A DNA stretch of 64,000 bases from Elusimicrobiota bacterium (GTDB lineage: Bacteria > Elusimicrobiota > UBA5214 > JBBAAG01). Positions 14,596 through 59,960 of the stretch are shown here, piece after piece. The notes beneath the pieces are model-generated. The model saw only the letters and a list, made by a program, of their open reading frames with translations, had not been told where the DNA came from and did no database searches. Each line of letters starts with the position of its first letter. The stretch's first letter is position 1. The stretch lies in assembly GCA_041658405.1 (NCBI GenBank), contig JBBAAG010000001.1:43386-107385 (forward strand), in the 5' to 3' direction. A program made the position numbers and the translations under genes.

Positions 14596-15894
14596 TTATA
14601 CACTTTTTTTTCTGAAATCATATACCCGCTGGGCTTTACCTTCCGCTGCGGGTAAACTATTAGGTTCAACCAGCTGGACAATAGGGTTCAACCCGAGCTC
14701 GGACCTAAGTTCTTCCGTCACTTTACGCTGGATTTGTTCAAGTTCTGTCAACGTTCCGCGGAAAATGTTTTCGTTGATCTCAATTTTGATGATAAGTTTA
14801 TCCATAAAACTTTCTTTTGTTAACTCAATAATATAATTATTGCCCACACCGGGTATACGCAGGATTGTGCGTTCAATCTGTATCGGGAAAATGTTTACCC
14901 CGTTGATGATAAGCATATCGTCACTACGCCCGGTAATCCTTGCGATCCTGCGGTGTGTCCGCCCGCAGGAACAGCGGGTAGATATTATATGTGTGAGATC
15001 GCGTGTGCGGTAGCGTATCAGCGGCATTGCCTGGCGCTGAAGCGTGGTTAATACAAGCTCGCCTTCTTCCCCGTCGGGAAGGACTTCGCAGGTATCCGGG
15101 TTAATGATTTCCGGATAAAAATGGTCTTCCCATAGATGCATACCATTTTGATGCGAGCATTCAAATGCAATCCCGGGCCCGCACATTTCGCTTAACCCGT
15201 AGGAGTTATAACATTTTATTTCATAAAGATTCTCAATTTGTTTCCTCATTTCCTCGCTATGCGGTTCTGCGCCGATGAAGGCAATACGTAGTTTAACGTC
15301 TTTCTTTGGGTCGAGGTTGAGTTCTTTAAATACATCAGTTAGCCGTAATGCGTAGGAGGGAAGAATATGCATAACTGTAGTCCCGAACTTTTGCATAAAC
15401 CATATTTGGCGTTTACTATTCCCCGGCCCGATCGGGATTGTAAGCATCCCAATCTTTTCCGCACCGTAATGGAACCCAAGCCCGCCAGTGAATAAACCGT
15501 AACCCATAGTGTTCTGGAACACGTCGGTATCACGTACCCCGGACATGTACATACATCTGGCGATCAGTGTAGCCCAGTTATCTATATCTTTCCGTGTGTG
15601 ATACACGACAGTAGGATTGCCGGTAGTACCTGACGAGGAATGTAACCGAATAACAGATTGAATATTTACCGCAAGCATACCGTAAGGAAAACTGTTCCGC
15701 AGGTCGTCTTTCACGGTGAATGGCAGGGATTGTATTGTTTTAACTGTTTTTATTCCATCTGCCGGGAAGGTTTTGAGTTTATCACGGTAAAACTCTGACT
15801 TCTTTGCGTGTTTTACAGTTTTGTTGAGTAACTGTATCTGTAACGCCTCAAGTTTTTTGCGCGGTATTGTTTCATATTCCTGCTGCCAGTACAT
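14596..15894 (-). CDS. Phenylacetate-CoA ligase family paralog
   Basis: It is 432 aa and collinear with the 7398..8702 protein. Shared motifs include SSGTTG and [17 protein letters not shown]. Confidence 0.8.
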   Translation of the reverse strand: MYWQQEYETIPRKKLEALQIQLLNKTVKHAKKSEFYRDKLKTFPADGIKTVKTIQSLPFTVKDDLRNSFPYGMLAVNIQSVIRLHSSSGTTGNPTVVYHTRKDIDNWATLIARCMYMSGVRDTDVFQNTMGYGLFTGGLGFHYGAEKIGMLTIPIGPGNSKRQIWFMQKFGTTVMHILPSYALRLTDVFKELNLDPKKDVKLRIAFIGAEPHSEEMRKQIENLYEIKCYNSYGLSEMCGPGIAFECSHQNGMHLWEDHFYPEIINPDTCEVLPDGEEGELVLTTLQRQAMPLIRYRTRDLTHIISTRCSCGRTHRRIARITGRSDDMLIINGVNIFPIQIERTILRIPGVGNNYIIELTKESFMDKLIIKIEINENIFRGTLTELEQIQRKVTEELRSELGLNPIVQLVEPNSLPAAEGKAQRVYDFRKKSV

Positions 15895-16006
15895 TTTAAC
15901 AACCCTTCCTTTTGGTTAATAACTTAATATTTTATAAAATATGCGGGTTATTAACAACTTATGCTTTCTTGACAAAAAGCGTACAAAAAGTAGTAAAATT
16001 ATTATT

Positions 16007-16504
16007 ATGAAACGTATTAATCAGCTGTCTGTCTGTACAGTAAAACAAATGTGTACATTATTTCTAACAATAATAATATTGCTGGGTTATACCGGTCTAT
16101 TACCCGCAGTAGAACAAAAACCCGGAATTAAAAAGGTTAAACCCGCTGCAGTAAAAATATCTACATCAACCGTAAAACAGGAAGAACCAAAATATTTTGT
16201 ACGTAAAAGCACAAACACGGATTATTCTCTTACAATGCTTGAACTTGGCTCAACAAATTGTATCCCATGCAAAATGATGGAAAAAGTGTTGTACACACTT
16301 GACGCAAAGTATGGCCGGCAGGTTAATTTTGTCTTTATTGATGTACGTTCAGCAGAAGGTACGCCCTATGCGCATAAGTATAACATTCTCGGTATTCCTA
16401 CCCAGGTATTTCTTGATAAAGACGGGAATGAAGTATTCCGCCACGTAGGATACTTCCCCGCGGACGAAGTTGTGAAAACATTTAAACGGTACGGGGTTAA
16501 GTAA
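16007..16504 (+). CDS. Membrane-anchored/secreted thioredoxin-like protein (CxxC)
   Basis: It has an N-terminal hydrophobic segment and an NCIPCK redox motif. The track ORF 15941 is probably over-extended; the ATG at 16007 gives MKRINQ... Confidence 0.55.
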   Translation: MKRINQLSVCTVKQMCTLFLTIIILLGYTGLLPAVEQKPGIKKVKPAAVKISTSTVKQEEPKYFVRKSTNTDYSLTMLELGSTNCIPCKMMEKVLYTLDAKYGRQVNFVFIDVRSAEGTPYAHKYNILGIPTQVFLDKDGNEVFRHVGYFPADEVVKTFKRYGVK

Positions 16505-47720: not shown

Positions 47721-48728
47721 TTACAAAATTGTATATTCCTCTGCGTGTATCGCCACAGGTTTTCCTATCGCGATTGATTCATTCGCGCGGTAACTCAATA
47801 ACGCGCCACGGATTGCTTTATTCACACCATTCGGCGGTTCTTTTTTGTTTAACACAGCATCCGCAAACGCATGAAGTTCGTACTCCCAGCCCTTATCACC
47901 CTTAGCAAGTTTTTCGGTAATAGTTTCCGTAGCGAAGCCATAAGCGTTAAGTTCAGTGAAGTCGTTGATATACACGGCCTTGCGGTTACTATAGATTTCA
48001 GTAACCTCCTTCGGCATTTTGTCATTACCTCTACTGGTGATAAGCGTAGTTCCCACAGATCCATCCGCAAAAGTTAGGGTTACACTCGCGGTATCCGGAA
48101 CCTCAACTTTTTCGTCAGTGATAAACACCCCGCCTGCAGCGTAGATTGTTATGGGTTCAGCGTTTATGAGTTCGCATAACAAGTCAAGGATATGCACGCC
48201 TTCCCCGATAATCCGTCCCCCTCCAAAAGTTTTATCGTGGAGCCAGTGGTTAGGTTTTGTTGTGTTCTGCAGACGGTGATAAATTATGCGTTTCGAGTTT
48301 TCAGTGGATAACATTTCCTTTGCTTTCCTCACCAGTGGAGCTAACCCGCGGTTATACCCAACAGTATATTTTATGCCAGATTTTTTCACGGCTTCCGCGA
48401 TACGCAGGCAGTCCGCGTAGTTTAACGCCATCGGCTTTTCGCAGACCACGTGTTTGCCCGCTTCCGCTGCTTTAACTGACAAGTCAGCGTGGGTATCATG
48501 ACGTGTGGTGATAAACACGGCATCAATGTTTTTGTCATCCAAAACTTTCTCCGCATCAGTTGTAGCGTACTCCGCGCCGGTAATATTTTTTAAATTATCC
48601 GCTGCGGGCTGTACAACATCGCAGGTAGCTATGACTTTGAATAATTGCGGTGCGTTCTTGATTATTGGTGAGTAAATCGTTTTCGCGAACCCTCCGCAGC
48701 CGATCATGCCGATCTTTAGTAATGACAT
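47721..48728 (-). CDS. Gfo/Idh/MocA-family NAD(P)-dependent oxidoreductase
   Basis: MSLLKIGMIGCGGFAKTIY is a Rossmann motif. A C-terminal alpha/beta domain is present. Length is 335 aa. Confidence 0.8.
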   Translation of the reverse strand: MSLLKIGMIGCGGFAKTIYSPIIKNAPQLFKVIATCDVVQPAADNLKNITGAEYATTDAEKVLDDKNIDAVFITTRHDTHADLSVKAAEAGKHVVCEKPMALNYADCLRIAEAVKKSGIKYTVGYNRGLAPLVRKAKEMLSTENSKRIIYHRLQNTTKPNHWLHDKTFGGGRIIGEGVHILDLLCELINAEPITIYAAGGVFITDEKVEVPDTASVTLTFADGSVGTTLITSRGNDKMPKEVTEIYSNRKAVYINDFTELNAYGFATETITEKLAKGDKGWEYELHAFADAVLNKKEPPNGVNKAIRGALLSYRANESIAIGKPVAIHAEEYTIL

Positions 48729-48828
48729 AAAGTATAAAACTCCTTCTCCAAATATTTTGTGTTTCCAGATACAATTATACTATTTTTGCTCATTCTATGA
48801 ATATCAGCTTGCTACCCATATCGTACAA

Positions 48829-49767
48829 TCAACTTAAGAAAATATTTTCATTGTGCCAAGAAAGGTAGTTTATTGAAGGCTTATTCTTTTCTTCGGGTAC
48901 ACTTTTTAATGAACTACCATGCACTGCATAATAATCTCTTCCATTCTCAAACTCCTCACGAATTCTTCTGCTGACTTCAACTTTTAAATCCGGTGTTATA
49001 GTAATATATCCCGTATCAAATAGCTTATGCAGATCCGAACGTAGTAATAAACCATTGGTGATTATATTGGGGCCGTTTTTAGAAATTGGCTGTATATGTG
49101 CCGCTTCTAAAACAGGTAACGTTCTTTCACCAGTAATCGCACATTTTTTATAATAAATATCTGTTACTATTAACCTGAATCCACCCTGACCTAATCTAGA
49201 TTTCGTTAGATAAGGATTTCCATATATTGCGGTCGAATCTGGCATTTCGTATTTACTTATTGTAAGTAAGGGATTGTATTTCACTAATCTTTCTGAAATC
49301 ATTTTAAACAAATTAAATCCTTCTGCTTCTTCAGTCTTATATATTTTTCCTCTAACTATATTTGAACTCCAACTTTGTGGTATATCAATCCAATCTTCTC
49401 TTTTAAAGAAAAATGGTGTTGAAAGCACGTTACATACTATTGATAGAGTGTGAATATTTTTGTTGTTAATTTCTTTGTTATATTTTTTTAAAACTGGTAG
49501 AAAATCATCTAATGCTTTTACACCATTTTTTTCTCCAAACGTTTCCCATGCTAATGCAATTGGAATTATAGTACTTGTTTCAAAAAAGCCACCACCAACA
49601 ATAAAATCTAATGGGCTATGCAATTTAAAAAGAAAAAGTTCTTTTGAAGACAATGCTTTAAAGGAGGTTAGTGATGGCTGCCAAAAATTTACTTCGTCGG
49701 GTAATGGATTTTGAGATGACAAATATTCAAACCATCTATTATCTGTTACACCTATCCAAATTTTCAC
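48829..49767 (-). CDS. HNH-family endonuclease (HNH_2-type) with N-terminal PUA/EVE-like domain; putative type IV (modification-dependent) restriction enzyme
   Basis: The C-terminus CAITGERTLPVLEAAHIQPISKNGPNIITNGLLLRSDLHKLFDTGYITITPD is the C...C...AHI.P....N.GL.L....H..FD.G pattern of HNH_2 nucleases. The N-terminal approximately 200 aa (KIWIGVTDNRWFEYL...FLFKLHSPLDFIVGGGFFE) resembles PUA-like/EVE folds. Confidence 0.65.
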   Translation of the reverse strand: MKIWIGVTDNRWFEYLSSQNPLPDEVNFWQPSLTSFKALSSKELFLFKLHSPLDFIVGGGFFETSTIIPIALAWETFGEKNGVKALDDFLPVLKKYNKEINNKNIHTLSIVCNVLSTPFFFKREDWIDIPQSWSSNIVRGKIYKTEEAEGFNLFKMISERLVKYNPLLTISKYEMPDSTAIYGNPYLTKSRLGQGGFRLIVTDIYYKKCAITGERTLPVLEAAHIQPISKNGPNIITNGLLLRSDLHKLFDTGYITITPDLKVEVSRRIREEFENGRDYYAVHGSSLKSVPEEKNKPSINYLSWHNENIFLS

Positions 49768-49964
49768 ATATTCACCTTTTTACTTTAAAGATTTAGATAA
49801 TATGATAATTCAAACGAGGCTTAACTTAACAAAAACCGATTACGGGCGCGATTACTAGCTTTTAAATTAATGATACTAAACAACAACTTATCAATCAATA
49901 AATATGTTTATGTTGTTATCATCATCTTTTTTGTATAATTGTAAGTATATTCGGATATAAAGAA

Positions 49965-51962
49965 GTGGATAAATATCAAGAAATAATTATGAAAAGATCT
50001 TACTATTCTGACTCTATTGAGCGTTTTCTTAATACAAATACTGACGAAATTCTTGGAAAACTAACAAAAAACAGCGATTTTGATTTAGGACAAGCTCAAA
50101 GAGATTCATGGATAGAAGAAATTAGTATTTTAAAGTCAGTTCTTTCTTATTATACGGGCGCGATATATTTTGAATATTCTATCCCTCGAATGGGGAAACG
50201 CATAGACGTAGTACTTCTTATTGATTCCATAATCTTCGTTCTTGAATTTAAGATTGGCGAAAAACAATTTACTTCATATGCAATAGACCAAGTATATGAT
50301 TACGCACTAGACTTAAAGAATTTTCACGAAACGAGTCATAACCAACCTATTGCACCAATTCTCATAGCAACAGGCGTTAAAAATTGTGATTTAGCTGATC
50401 CAATAATACGCATAGATGATAATTTGTTTTCACCTATACGAACCAATGATAAATTTTTAAATACTGTCATTAAATATGTTCTACAATTTTCTCCCGAACA
50501 CAAAATAGACCAACTGGCATGGGAAAAAGGGAGATATTGCCCTACACCTACCATTATAGAAGCAGCTATGGCCCTCTATAATAGCCATTCCGTTAATGAT
50601 ATATCTCGAAACGATGCTAGCGCAAAAAATCTGAGCATAACGTCAGAATCGATATCAGAAATTATTAGTTATTCAAAAACGAAATACAGAAAATCTATAT
50701 GTTTTGTAACCGGCGTACCTGGGGCCGGGAAAACTTTAGTTGGACTTAATATTGCAACCAAATATATTGATAAATCGAGTGATCTCCATAGTGTATTTCT
50801 ATCCGGAAACGGTCCGTTGGTATCAATACTACGGGAAGCTCTTGCACGTGATAAGGTTCAACAATCAAAAGAACGTGGAATACGAATAAGAAAAGGTATT
50901 GCAATGAGTGAAGTAAAGATGTTTATTCAAAATGTGCACAATTTTCGTGATGATTGTCTTGATAACTTAAAACCCCCATTGGAACATGTTGTTCTTTTTG
51001 ATGAAGCGCAACGCGCGTGGAATAAAGAACAGACAACAAATTTTATGCGTCGAAAAAAGAATAAGCCTAATTTTAACCGTTCAGAATCAGAATTTCTAAT
51101 TTCATGCTTGGATCGACATACAGATTGGGCAGTTATCGTATGTCTAGTTGGTGGAGGTCAGGAAATTAATACAGGTGAGGCAGGAATTAGTGAATGGTTA
51201 GCATCCTTGAATAACTCGTTTAAAGATTGGGATATTTATATATCCGCCCATCTTACCGATAGCGAATATAACACAAATGACGTTCTAGATAAATTAAAAT
51301 CACGAATAAATATTAACTTAAAAAATGACTTACATCTTGCAGTATCAATGCGTTCTTTCCGAGCTGAACATGTTTCGTTATTAGTAAAGCAATTACTCGA
51401 TCTTGAAAATGCCGAGGCATATAGAACTTTGATAGAAATTCAGGAAAAGTATCCTATTGTTTTGACTCGTAACTTGGCTAAAGCAAAACAGTGGCTCAGG
51501 TCGAAAGCACGAGGTTCAGAACGTTATGGCCTTGTCGTGTCTTCTCAAGCCGAACGACTAAAACCGTATGCAATAGATGTTAAATCACCAATGGAGCCAA
51601 TTCATTGGTTTCTTGATGGAAAAGAAGATGTTCGTTCTTCCTATTATTTAGAAGACGTTGCAACAGAGTTTGATATCCAAGGCCTCGAACTTGATTGGGC
51701 AGGGATTATCTGGGATGCCGATTTCCGACATTCAAATGAAGGTTGGAACCACTGGTCTTTTTGCGGTGATAGATGGAATCACATTAGGAAACCAGAAAGA
51801 CAAAGTTACCAAAAGAATGCCTATCGCGTACTTTTAACTCGTGCACGCCAAGGAATGGTGATTGTTGTACCAGAAGGAGATGCTGGTGATCCAACTCGAA
51901 AAAAAGAATATTATGACCCTACTTATGAATATTTAAAGGAAATTGGTTTTACGGAGATATAA
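49965..51962 (+). CDS. PD-(D/E)xK nuclease fused to DUF2075-type SF1-helicase-like P-loop ATPase (Schlafen/Nhi-like nuclease-helicase)
   Basis: The N-terminus [22 protein letters not shown] has the D...ExK nuclease motif. Walker A is [13 protein letters not shown] and Walker B is VVLFDEAQ. The C-terminus [13 protein letters not shown] is a helicase motif VI-like. An alternative start is the ATG at 49989. Confidence 0.65.
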
Positions 51963-51965
51963 AAC

Positions 51966-52778
51966 ATGTTTGACAACAACGTCCTCTTTGCATTCGGGCT
52001 GACCTTGCTCGCAGGGTTATCTACCGGGATAGGTAGTATCCTGGCGTTACTCTCAAAAAAGGTTAACCCCAAATATTTATCCGCAGCATTAGGTTTCTCC
52101 GCAGGGGTTATGCTCTACGTATCATTCGTAGAAATCCTGGCTGACGCACGGAAATCGTTAGTTGTTCTCTATGGTAACAAGCCGGGGTTCTGGATTGCAA
52201 CCGCTGCTTTTTTCGCGGGGATCGGGTTAATCGCATTGATTGATAAACTAGTTCCCGAGTATGAGAACCCGCATGAACTTAAGAATATTAGTGATAAAAC
52301 TGATGGCACTGCACCAGCCTGTGATCCGCGGTTAATGCGGGTGGGAGTGTTCACCGCACTGGCGATCGGTATACATAATTTCCCTGAGGGTATTGCCACG
52401 TTTATCAGTGCGTTACACACACCCGCTTTGGGGATAAGTATTGCCGTGGCGGTTGCTATCCACAACATCCCGGAAGGCCTTGTGGTATCGGTACCGATAT
52501 ACTGCGCAACAGGTAGTAGAAGAAAAGCGTTTATTTACTCGTTTCTTTCCGGGTTATCAGAACCCGTTGGCGCGATTATTGGTTACCTGTTGTTACGCAC
52601 ATTCCTTAACCCTGCAATGTTCGGTATAATTTTTGCTCTCGTAGCGGGAATTATGGTATATATTTCTCTGGATGAACTGTTCCCCACTGCGGAAAAGTAT
52701 GGGGAACATCATATCGTTATCACCGGCTTTATTGCCGGGATGGCGGTTATGGCGGTAAGTTTATTGTTATTGATGTAA
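51966..52778 (+). CDS. zupT: ZIP-family zinc transporter
   Basis: HNFPEGIAT and HNIPEGL histidine-rich TM motifs are present. There are 8 TM helices. Length is 270 aa. Confidence 0.8.
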
Positions 52779-56935: not shown

Positions 56936-57565
56936 ATGACGGATAAATACAATAATACTTTCGGGTATGACAGTAAAACTGAAACATGGATGCTGTTGAA
57001 AGACGTAATAACCGCCAGTGAGCGTGTTTTGTGGTCCGGTAAACCTGATGCCAGTGTTATCTTCGAAAAACTTGACTACCTGTTTATCCCTCTGGGGATT
57101 GGCTATACCTGGGTTTGTACCTCGTGGTGTGTGGGTGTGACAGAAAAAGTTGTGGAGTTATACCTGGACACAAGATTCGCGAATCCCGCGAACTGGCTCT
57201 CGCTTTTGTTTCCGTTAATCGGTGCGGTACTGATATTATCAGGATTGTATCTCACCATCGGACGGTTTGTGTATAAAACGTACAAACGTAAACGCACGTT
57301 TTATGCGCTTACTGACAAACGCGTAATCATTGTTCATGCAACTGGAGAAAAAAAGGTTACCTCAGCTGAATACAGGATTATTGATAGCATACAAAAAGTG
57401 GCAACTGCAGAGGCACGGGGAACTGTTGTATTTAGTTTATCCAGTGAAATGTTTGACCCTGAACACAACAAGGATAATATACCTGAATATTTTGTATTTG
57501 CAGATTTACCGGACTACGAACTAGTGTACAATCTTGCAGAGCCGTATTTAAAATCACAGAAATAA
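56936..57565 (+). CDS. Membrane bPH-domain protein, tandem paralog
   Basis: VLWSGKPDASVIFEKLDYLFIPLGIGY and YALTDKRVIIV are bPH signatures. It starts 1 nt after the stop of the preceding paralog. The track ORF 56705 is an out-of-context upstream extension. Confidence 0.5.
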   Translation: MTDKYNNTFGYDSKTETWMLLKDVITASERVLWSGKPDASVIFEKLDYLFIPLGIGYTWVCTSWCVGVTEKVVELYLDTRFANPANWLSLLFPLIGAVLILSGLYLTIGRFVYKTYKRKRTFYALTDKRVIIVHATGEKKVTSAEYRIIDSIQKVATAEARGTVVFSLSSEMFDPEHNKDNIPEYFVFADLPDYELVYNLAEPYLKSQK

Positions 57566-57692
57566 ACGGTTAAGTAACCTTTACACGTTAAGTGTTATCC
57601 ATTATCTCAAGATATATTTAAGATTATTATGTTTAAATAATATCATAAAAGGCTTGATATTGAATTCATAAATTATATATATTGGTGTAAAC

Positions 57693-59792
57693 ATGATGAA
57701 AATATTTTTGTCTACCTTTTTGTTAAGCCTGGCTGGTTATCTGAGTAATGCTGACTGTGCAAACCTGCAAAATAATTCTTTATACGACCCGTCATTGGAT
57801 ATTACTTCAGTTGAAGCTATGGAAAAGAGTTTAATAATAAAATTAACGGGTATCCTCAAAACACCGGTAAAATTGATTGAACTTAAACCTTACCAAAAAT
57901 ATACGCTTGACTCAAAACTGAGTATCGCCTGGCAGGGGATCCCCGAAAATAACCGTATCGAAATACCCAGGTTTGCGGGTACACAGGACAGGTTATTTTC
58001 AAAATTTCAAATAATTGATTCTAAGTCCAGGCAACGGGCCGGGAAATCTCATTATGTAAACGACTTATCGTCGGTATCATTACGTAACTTCGATTTTCTC
58101 CGGCCTGCAAGTATTAAAGGGCTTCAGGTGCAGGATGTAGAAGATGCGGTTCTTCTAGGGGTTAAACATGCGGCAATAAATATTTCGGTCTCAAGTATAA
58201 TTAATTGGTCTACCGGTACCCCTAGCGAAACATGGGAAGTAGACGGTGAAAATATACCGATTAATACTAAGTATATAAGTAGATTAGACACTACCTGCAA
58301 AAACCTGACTGCTGCAGGAATTGATATTACCGGAATTCTTCTTAACCATGTGCCGGATAGCCCAAACCCGCAAAATTATTTAATTCATCCAAAAACGGAT
58401 TTAGCTAACGCACCGAATCATTTAGGAGCATTTAATACGGCTACTGACCCCGGGTTACGTTACTATCATGCAGTAATTGAATATCTGGCTAACCGTTACT
58501 CTGATCCAACGGGTAAATTCGGCTGGGTTTCCGGTTACATTATTGGTAATGAAGTTCAGTCACACCTGGAATGGTATAATATCGGTAAAATCACGTTATC
58601 TGATTTTGTTGAAGATTACGGGATTGCTTTACGGATTGCCGATCTTGCAGCAAGAAAATTTCATTCTAAAATCCGGATTTACGTATCCTTAGACCATCAT
58701 TGGAGTACAGCCCTTCGCCCTGATCCGTTAACGGCATTTAATGGTAAAGAATTTGTGGAACAATTAACTATTTGGTCAAAAAACAGCGGTGATTTCCCCT
58801 GGCATATTGCTTTTCATCCGTACCCGGAGAACCTTTTCGAACCGCGGTTCTGGAATGACCGGATGGCAGTATTAAGTTTTGACACACCCAAGATTACTTT
58901 TAAAAATATTGAAGTATTACCTGCGTTTCTAAACCAGGATATTTTATTGTACCGAGGTCAGCCGCGACGGATTATTCTCTCAGAGCAGGGATTTCATACA
59001 CCAGCGGGGATAGACGGCGAAAAAGTTCAGGCAGCTGCTTATGCATATGCTTTCCATAAACTCAGCCATCTGCCGGGGATAGACGCATTTATTCTTCATC
59101 GGCATGTAGACCATAAAGGAGAGGGTAACCTGAGGTTAGGTCTTTGGACCTGGACAGAAAATGATCCTAATGCTTCTAAGCCTGATAAGAAAAAATATAT
59201 ATATGACGTGTTCCGTCTGGCAGATACCGCACAGCGGGAAAGTGTATTCGAGTTCGCCAAACCAATCATTGGAATAAAAGATTGGGCTGAAACATTACCC
59301 GTACTTTCTACAAGTACTTATACTAAACTATCCTGGAATCCGGTCCCGGAGGAAACAGAATCTGTTGTTATCAATTTAACTGACAATATAAACAATGCCG
59401 TACTTACAAACTGTTTATCCTGGCGTAGTGAAGTTGTACTTTATAACGAAACCCTAAAAAAATCTATTTTCCATCATCCTAAGGAACTAGCTGATAGTGA
59501 CGCTACTTTTACGATTAAGCTCCCTGTTCTGAAGTCAGGAAAAAAGTTGAGTTTCGTATTTGGTACCGGTTTAACTCATGAAAGTGTTGATGGTGCACGG
59601 TTTTCTGTCTTGATTGACGGTAAAGAATTATGGGATGTTTCTGATAAAAATACGGTAATAAACGAATACAAAATTGATTTAACACCATGGGCTGGGAAAA
59701 CTGTTTTATTAACCCTCCGGGTAAACCCGCTGGAAAACACTCAATATGACTGGCTGGTCTGGGTGTATCCGCTGATAATCACAGAAAAATAA
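57693..59792 (+). CDS. Secreted 699-aa hypothetical protein, possible clan GH-A-like glycoside hydrolase
   Basis: It has a signal peptide. The IIGNEVQ (NEP-like acid/base) motif lies in a TIM-barrel-like region. I recognised no firm family. Confidence 0.35.
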   Translation: MMKIFLSTFLLSLAGYLSNADCANLQNNSLYDPSLDITSVEAMEKSLIIKLTGILKTPVKLIELKPYQKYTLDSKLSIAWQGIPENNRIEIPRFAGTQDRLFSKFQIIDSKSRQRAGKSHYVNDLSSVSLRNFDFLRPASIKGLQVQDVEDAVLLGVKHAAINISVSSIINWSTGTPSETWEVDGENIPINTKYISRLDTTCKNLTAAGIDITGILLNHVPDSPNPQNYLIHPKTDLANAPNHLGAFNTATDPGLRYYHAVIEYLANRYSDPTGKFGWVSGYIIGNEVQSHLEWYNIGKITLSDFVEDYGIALRIADLAARKFHSKIRIYVSLDHHWSTALRPDPLTAFNGKEFVEQLTIWSKNSGDFPWHIAFHPYPENLFEPRFWNDRMAVLSFDTPKITFKNIEVLPAFLNQDILLYRGQPRRIILSEQGFHTPAGIDGEKVQAAAYAYAFHKLSHLPGIDAFILHRHVDHKGEGNLRLGLWTWTENDPNASKPDKKKYIYDVFRLADTAQRESVFEFAKPIIGIKDWAETLPVLSTSTYTKLSWNPVPEETESVVINLTDNINNAVLTNCLSWRSEVVLYNETLKKSIFHHPKELADSDATFTIKLPVLKSGKKLSFVFGTGLTHESVDGARFSVLIDGKELWDVSDKNTVINEYKIDLTPWAGKTVLLTLRVNPLENTQYDWLVWVYPLIITEK

Positions 59793-59798
59793 CATATT

Positions 59799-59884
59799 TG
59801 GGCAAGGAGGGAATCGAACCCTCAAGACCTGTAAGGGTCATAGGTTTTTGAGACCTACGTGTCTGCCAGTTCCACCACTTGCCC
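59799..59884 (-). tRNA. tRNA-Leu (anticodon CAA), class II with long variable arm; CCA not encoded
   Basis: The reverse complement reads GGGCAAG-TG-GTGGAACTGGCAGAC..TAGGT-CTCAAAA-ACCTA..long V-arm..GAGGG-TTCGATT-CCCTC-CTTGCCC-A. It has a 7-bp acceptor stem, a GGTTCGATTCC T-loop and a CAA anticodon in a 7-nt loop. Confidence 0.75.
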
Positions 59885-59960
59885 AGGCTTGTTAATTTCC
59901 GCTTATTATATATAATTTAGTGCGAGTCCGTCAATTTATATGGAAACAGGGGTACTTTAA

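Follow-up and report, generated by a model that had tools for sequence, protein, structure and literature searches.

A small AT-rich island lies at positions 48729-51965 of the 64-kb window analysed here (the whole stretch of DNA under study), which comes from an uncultured Elusimicrobiota bacterium. The host contig is 256 kb long (ENA ERZ27247322 k141_631253) and also occurs in JGI data and in an assembly of SRR8449812. Only two substantial open reading frames (ORFs) are found inside the island, as an earlier note on this sequence had claimed, and they diverge from one AT-rich intergenic region. Gene A (48829..49767, minus strand) codes for a protein of 312 amino acids in which a PUA-superfamily, ASCH-like domain precedes an HNH_2 nuclease domain, and gene B (49965..51962, plus strand) codes for a 665-amino acid protein of the Nhi-like, or PADLOC PDC-S41, family. 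To the left is a Gfo/Idh/MocA oxidoreductase gene of normal G+C (GC) content (47721..48728, minus strand; identified with Pfam and NCBIfam), and to the right is zupT (51966..52778, plus strand; NCBIfam ZupT equivalog, E = 1.8e-114). We conclude with good confidence that two independent single-gene anti-phage systems make up the island, a small defence islet that was probably acquired horizontally.

Composition and origin of the island

The island has a GC content of 33.9%, compared with 43.7% for the remainder of the window, and lies at z = -4.9 relative to all 3237-bp windows outside it (mean 43.7%, standard deviation 2.0%, minimum 38.8%). The lowest values, 27-29% in 400-bp windows, are reached at approximately 49200-50200, and the GC content at third codon positions (GC3) is 0.215 in gene A and 0.248 in gene B, the two lowest values among 54 ORFs (mean 0.44, standard deviation 0.066). 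The island is therefore an outlier and not indistinguishable from its surroundings. The earlier note had described an abrupt drop to 30-35% GC from 45-50%; the former figure stands, but the flanks are at 41-48%. It had also held that nothing else in the window shares this profile, which is correct for stretches of 3237 bp, none of which falls below 38.8%, but two short 500-bp patches elsewhere, at approximately 15.8 kb and 57.3 kb, are also at 32-34% GC. The first (15751-16350) is at a thioredoxin-like ORF (15941-16501), and the second (57251-58100) lies upstream of and extends into a DUF5722-family gene (57693-59789), the end of which adjoins a tRNA-Leu(CAA) gene (59798-59885).

Two-boundary maximum-likelihood segmentation of the interval from 44 to 56 kb sets the left compositional edge at 48711 and the right one at 51490. 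On the left the change is sharp and falls at the Gfo/Idh/MocA start codon (48728), as had been proposed. On the right, gene B terminates at 51962 with its stop codon and zupT begins with an ATG at 51966, in agreement with the proposed end of the island 3 nt before zupT, but the final ~475 bp of gene B are already at ~40% GC, so that this edge is a gene boundary rather than a sharp compositional one.

The low GC and GC3 values point to acquisition from an AT-richer donor, and the island was probably acquired horizontally. Both families are widely distributed. Orthologues of gene B that are 63-77% identical to it are found in Nitrospirota, Bacteroidota, Chloroflexota, Planctomycetota, Acidobacteriota, Omnitrophota and others (more than 10 phyla), and gene A, which has more than 8000 homologues, has relatives at 51-66% identity that are likewise spread over more than 10 phyla; members of both families are present on plasmids and on IMG/VR viral contigs. 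More distant PDC-S41 relatives, 41-55% identical, occur on IMG/VR viral contigs (L188-L196), and one lies on a 12.7-kb record from human faeces labelled 'Bacteriophage sp.' (H26 = MT836127.1, 10060-12015). Phages or prophages are thus among the carriers of the PDC-S41 family.

Alternatively, the low GC content might not mark a recent insertion, either because an AT bias relative to the host is inherent in these families or because the genes are old residents of the interval between Gfo/Idh/MocA and zupT. PDC-S41 orthologues are indeed AT-richer than their surroundings almost everywhere: their GC content is below that of the flanks in 59 of the 65 loci with enough flank for the comparison (within L005-L084), by a mean of 7 and by as much as 21 GC points. 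The island also has no integrase, attachment-site-like repeats or tRNA, the sole tRNA gene found (59798-59885) being 8 kb away, and housekeeping genes at 1-6 kb of the window (NAD synthase and CTP synthase) are themselves at 39-41% GC. Moreover, zupT appears tied to gene B in translation or transcription, as its ATG comes just 3 nt after the end of gene B and its Shine-Dalgarno sequence, GGAG, falls within the final codons of that gene (ACGGAGATATAAAACATG, 51951-51968), which suggests a settled arrangement. We nonetheless consider this alternative unlikely, because the GC3 values of both genes are at least 3 standard deviations below the window mean and under those of every other ORF, because the presence of both families in more than 10 phyla at the identities given above would require frequent transfer, and because both are found on plasmids and viral contigs.

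Searches with the flanking genes and with the island genes located no genome near enough to the host to reveal an empty site, with Gfo/Idh/MocA directly beside zupT. The closest Gfo/Idh/MocA homologue in a protein search is 57% identical and shows no synteny, and two of the closest homologues show no synteny with zupT. A metagenome scan with the Gfo/Idh/MocA protein gave paralogues of no more than 35% identity among the matches listed, and exact-sequence look-ups of gene A, gene B and zupT led back only to the source contig and to one duplicate assembly.

Domain architecture of the two proteins

Gene A begins with a GTG codon (preceded by AAGGTG), and this start agrees with the homologue consensus MKFWVGV. 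Its C-terminal part matches the Pfam HNH_2 (beta-beta-alpha-Me) nuclease domain (E = 1.8e-12; residues 209-257; 48997..49143, minus strand), and residues H224, N238 and H247, invariant in 36 homologues, form an intact H-N-H triad that aligns to the ASHIKP, NGLLL and HLFDKG motifs of VcaM4I. The sole sequence relatives in the PDB are VcaM4I (EVE-HNH) and TagI (SRA-HNH), and these are related through the HNH part only, with the phmmer alignment limited to residues 186-272. The N-terminal ~165 residues (49273..49767, minus strand) are confidently modelled by AlphaFold2 and match the PUA superfamily in two structure-search programs; this domain is a predicted reader of a modified base. Foldseek aligns it with VcaM4I (1.8e-5) and with a Zymomonas ASCH protein (4e-5, template modelling score 0.66-0.70), and the best fold match is ASCH rather than EVE. 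Its structural neighbours include the readers of DNA containing 5-methylcytosine or N6-methyladenine in McrB, THYN1 and VcaM4I, and the 5-hydroxymethylcytosine-specific PD-T4-3. The initial description of gene A as a predicted nuclease with a PUA/EVE-like domain and HNH_2 is thus borne out.

This architecture is that of the EVE-HNH enzymes of the VcaM4I/TspA15I group and the SRA-HNH enzymes TagI and ScoA3IV, all Type IV (Lutz et al. 2019; Pastor et al. 2021), which gene A resembles in its N-terminal PUA-superfamily domain and C-terminal HNH_2, in its length of ~310 amino acids, and in the lack of an adjacent methyltransferase. Its sensor domain differs from that of the EVE-HNH group, with no sequence-level similarity. 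Modification-dependent PUA-HNH enzymes have no adjacent methyltransferase and cut DNA alone in vitro (Lutz et al. 2019, PMC6765204), and in agreement with this no methyltransferase domain was found among the genes within ±10 kb of gene A. Gene A homologues adjoin genes for GmrSD, pPIWI, UvrD-helicase and PIN proteins, and elsewhere a Type ISP restriction-modification system with AbiE. We regard gene A as a putative member of the PUA-HNH Type IV (modification-dependent) restriction class, with a predicted sensor closest to ASCH. Assignment as a phosphorothioate-dependent restriction enzyme (NCBIfam NF045808) was rejected, the score being 66.1 bits against a cutoff of 180 and the match being confined to the HNH/C-terminal part.

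It is quite unlikely that gene A is instead a homing or selfish nuclease, a DNA repair enzyme, or a protein with an RNA-directed activity such as some ASCH proteins have. Its closest fold is ASCH, some members of which (ZmASCH and YqfB) act on RNA or N4-acetylcytidine, and only its HNH part aligns to characterised enzymes, there being no sequence-level likeness to a characterised sensor of DNA modification. However, VcaM4I, TagI and ScoMcrA-type Type IV enzymes employ this same HNH_2 domain, the structural neighbours of gene A include the modified-DNA readers named above, its homologues are located in defence islands, and it is not inserted within a host gene or intron.

Gene B matches the PADLOC PDC-S41 profile with E = 5.1e-290, residues 9-665 aligning to profile positions 1-653 of 657. 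The mechanically called ORF starts at GTG 49965, and both the PADLOC profile and most homologues (658 amino acids) begin at the equivalent of M9; ATG 49989, which gives a protein of 657 amino acids, appears the likelier start. Residues 243-636 (50691..51872, plus strand) match Pfam PF09848 (DUF2075, or 'Schlafen group 3 helicase', SLFN-g3; E = 2.4e-83, profile positions 1-353 of 354), a helicase-type P-loop nucleoside triphosphatase (NTPase) domain. Its Walker A motif, GVPGAGKT (50712-50735), has G250, V251, P252, G253, G255, K256 and T257 invariant and A254 conserved in at least 90% of 30 close homologues, in which the DEAQ box (D346-Q349) is also conserved.

The N-terminal part of gene B contains a NERD-like PD-(D/E)xK core (residues ~13-142; 50001..50390, plus strand) recognised by its motif and by profile homology. 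The motif residues D81 (50205-50207), E94 (50244-50246) and K96 (50250-50252) are invariant in the same 30 homologues, and among 18 homologues at 38-47% identity E94 and K96 are invariant and D81 is present in at least 90%. In the predicted model the secondary structure order is alpha-beta-beta-beta-alpha-beta, D81 opening strand 81-86 and E94 and K96 lying in strand 89-97, which fits a PD-(D/E)xK core. The domain also aligns with the N-termini of a group of 800-amino acid paralogues (hhalign probability 96.9%, E = 1.7e-10) that pass the Pfam NERD threshold at that end. Weak, sub-threshold matches over the D...ExK segment were obtained with HSDR_N (E = 0.096) and, in a profile search with a diverse N-domain alignment, with PDB entry 3dnx (E = 0.27). 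A PDB match to Zeta toxin in a single-sequence search was spurious, arising from the P-loop.

The view of gene B as a PD-(D/E)xK protein with a DUF2075 helicase-like ATPase is therefore upheld by the PF09848 match and the conserved D...ExK residues, whereas its description as Schlafen-like holds for one domain only. The DUF2075 domain is the Pfam group 3 helicase domain of eukaryotic and prokaryotic Schlafen proteins, but the Schlafen RNase core, by which the bacterial Schlafens of PMC13056530 are defined, is absent from gene B in a Pfam search and the N-terminus is instead like a PD-(D/E)xK/NERD DNA nuclease. The label 'Schlafen-like nuclease' was thus set aside.

A relationship to proteins with verified anti-phage activity comes from the single-gene 'Nhi-like' system SG141 of B. 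cereus FSL H8-0482, which was verified by Millman et al. (2022) and described by them as an N-terminal nuclease with DUF2075 (611 amino acids). Using as query the 399 residues recovered from the supplement of that study, BLASTP aligns it with gene B at 27% identity over 370 amino acids (E = 2e-38). A B. mycoides plasmid protein (L165) that is 88% identical to the verified protein matches the PDC-S41 profile (4e-113), and its alignment covers 96% of gene B. The homology is thus full-length, the shared architecture being an N-terminal D...ExK nuclease followed by a PTPTIIEAA-type linker and then a DUF2075 P-loop NTPase, and both are single genes, the gene B family having no conserved partner. 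Gene B is just 27-28% identical to the verified Bacillus protein and falls in the very conserved PDC-S41 subclade (63-77% identity). These alignments place gene B in the Nhi-like family as a putative single-gene anti-phage protein. A literature search for the name 'PDC-S41' gave no match.

Gene B is also reminiscent of Nhi itself (SERP2475 of Staphylococcus epidermidis; Bari et al. 2022), which has the same domain logic of a PD-(D/E)xK nuclease and a DUF2075 helicase, and in which one protein senses and degrades phage replication intermediates (bioRxiv 10.1101/776245). However, the match of gene B to the PADLOC Nhi profile is confined to the P-loop region, residues 235-365 (profile positions 196-288 of 470; E = 1.3e-6). 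Gene B is not a sequence-level member of Staphylococcus Nhi, and the mechanism is transferred by analogy.

Co-occurrence of the two families

The earlier note had proposed that gene A and gene B form one uncharacterised two-gene system. We examined 80 genomic PDC-S41 loci, including as much as 10 kb of flank on either side, and a gene A homologue is present in one of them (L011). Both families are also present on a further metagenomic contig (L004), on the same strand and with another gene between them. Counted together, these give 2 of 80 genomic loci with the HNH family, or 3 of 80 when the different HNH_2 protein of L071 (below) is included. The HNH family is in none of nine viral PDC-S41 loci, and a PDC-S41 or DUF2075 relative is in none of 22 HNH-anchored loci (nine genomic or plasmid, 13 viral). 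The order and orientation of the pair differ in every co-occurrence. Clustering of all neighbours identified no partner conserved across the 80 PDC-S41 loci, and the commonest specific neighbours, a MazG-like gene and an 800-amino acid paralogue, are found at only 6-7 of them. The level of co-location is that of defence-island clustering and not of an obligate pair, and by the criterion set beforehand such rare co-occurrence identifies the two genes as two independent single-gene systems. Nor is the cassette uncharacterised. The PADLOC check matched gene B end to end with the catalogued candidate PDC-S41, which is homologous to the verified Nhi-like protein, and the architecture of gene A is the known one of PUA-HNH Type IV enzymes; with both genes belonging to families already catalogued, the islet is an ordinary one rather than a new two-gene system.

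At one of the 80 loci (L071, from an Acidobacteriota metagenome-assembled genome), a different HNH_2 protein is directly upstream of the PDC-S41 orthologue. This is a 324-amino acid HNH_2 endonuclease (L071:8694-9668) encoded 43 bp from the orthologue; its N-domain is unrelated to that of gene A, and only its HNH part aligns to gene A, with 28% identity. A Fic-domain gene is located just downstream.

It is very unlikely that the two genes make up one cooperative system, in which the PUA-HNH protein would mark or nick modified phage DNA and the DUF2075 nuclease-helicase would load at the nick and degrade processively, since against the adjacent and divergent placement of the genes on one common intergenic region, the presence in L004 and L011 of both families no more than a few kb apart, the HNH_2 gene 43 bp upstream in L071, and the suggestion of joint testing that Lutz et al. 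(2019) made for a modification-dependent enzyme of the McaZI group beside a DUF2075 NTPase stand the rarity of co-occurrence in genomic, viral and HNH-anchored loci, the variable order and orientation with an extra gene in L004, protection by a gene B homologue alone, and cutting of DNA by PUA-HNH enzymes alone in vitro (PMC6765204). The McaZI-group enzymes (DUF3427) resemble the present arrangement in that a modification-dependent nuclease gene adjoins a DUF2075 NTPase gene, and differ from it in having a sensor/nuclease of DUF3427 with PD-(D/E)xK in place of PUA with HNH; the pairing reported by Lutz et al. (2019) is an observation, not a demonstrated system.

Two other neighbours recur near the gene families. 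A MazG-like gene (PF12643, ~115 amino acids) directly adjoins gene A homologues in at least four independent loci, being upstream in L004 (3057-4357) and 15-20 bp downstream in L166 (6001-7312), L167 (6001-7312) and L181 (10001-11274); it is absent from the window. PUA-HNH and MazG-like genes may constitute a real two-gene module. An ~800-amino acid paralogue with NERD, DUF2075 and Peptidase_S24 domains directly precedes the PDC-S41 orthologue in 6-7 of the 80 loci. The loci with this paralogue are L004 (3057-8791), L011 (1572-7313), L018, L040, L045, L053 and L076, and six of them have the MazG-like gene before it. All four genes (MazG-like, PUA-HNH, NERD-DUF2075-S24 and PDC-S41) are present in L004 and L011, in different orders. 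The 800-amino acid paralogue and the MazG-like protein correspond to no named PADLOC system beyond a weak PDC-S41/AbiO/Nhi match. We think it highly improbable that gene A and gene B cooperate, with HNH nicks acting as entry sites for the helicase-nuclease, and that the window holds a minimal form of such a larger, recurrent four-gene module, parts of which are seen at other loci. Cooperation, if it occurred, would carry further the old idea of DUF2075 NTPases acting together with modification-dependent nucleases; the co-occurrence data speak against it.

Intergenic features and predicted activities

Gene A and gene B are separated by an AT-rich divergent intergenic region (49768..49988), of 197 bp to GTG 49965 or 221 bp to ATG 49989, which presumably carries the promoters of both genes. 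Promoter-like sites are found on both strands of this region but are not enriched over shuffled sequence, and neither promoter- nor terminator-like sites were in excess. The region has no ORF of 42 or more amino acids and no Rfam match. Between the gene A stop codon and the Gfo/Idh/MocA start is an AT-rich spacer of 100 bp (48729..48828, minus strand), which probably holds the native promoter of the Gfo/Idh/MocA gene; a promoter-like TTCATA-16-TATAAT (10/12 matches), a consensus match only, runs from 48801 to 48774 on the minus strand. No promoter-like site is present directly 5′ of zupT on the plus strand, and because of this, the 3-nt gap and the position of the Shine-Dalgarno sequence within gene B, zupT is probably co-transcribed with gene B or read through from it.

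A GC-rich 12-mer, TACGGGCGCGAT, occurs exactly twice in the window, and both copies are in the island, 312 bp apart. One (49841-49852) falls between the divergent genes and the other (50153-50164) within codons 62-66 of gene B. In shuffled sequence 0.3 matches are expected, and three of 100 shuffles reach two. The 12-mer could be an operator or a product of chance.

In the reading of the islet as two independent systems, the PUA/ASCH-like N-terminal domain of gene A would bind a modified base in incoming DNA, and the C-terminal HNH domain would then nick or cut nearby. No methyltransferase would be required, because the host DNA would lack the mark. For gene B, by analogy with Nhi, the DUF2075 ATPase/helicase would engage phage DNA replication intermediates and the NERD-like PD-(D/E)xK domain would degrade them, such that a single protein could be both sensor and effector. 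The two proteins would cover different classes of phages and be neighbours simply through the clustering of defence genes. The proposal of a horizontally acquired anti-phage module is thus retained insofar as the composition is anomalous and both families have a record in defence, but the islet is not one module.

Several points weigh against this reading. Acquisition is deduced from composition alone, its time and mode being inferences, and no integrase, tRNA or convincing direct or inverted flanking repeats were found at the island borders. The N-domain of gene A shows no sequence similarity to any characterised sensor. For gene B, the full-length model is poor (mean predicted local distance difference test score 55), the alignment being too shallow in diversity, and a Foldseek search of the PDB with this model gave no match at E ≤ 0.001; the putative nuclease assignment draws on motifs and transitive profile homology, and PDC-S41 is a candidate family only, with its verified relative at 27-28% identity. 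Lastly, the few co-occurrences (the window, L004, L011 and L071) are above random genomic expectation, and gene A and gene B may be weakly coupled in function.

The finding has little weight beyond annotation; it documents, in this uncultured Elusimicrobiota lineage, an Nhi-like nuclease-helicase alongside a PUA-HNH nuclease that is Type IV-like. For the PDC-S41 family, the tie to a verified Nhi-like protein raises it from a candidate to a probable defence family. As a conserved subclade that is nearly always AT-richer than its host, PDC-S41 is a good and easy target for experimental validation.

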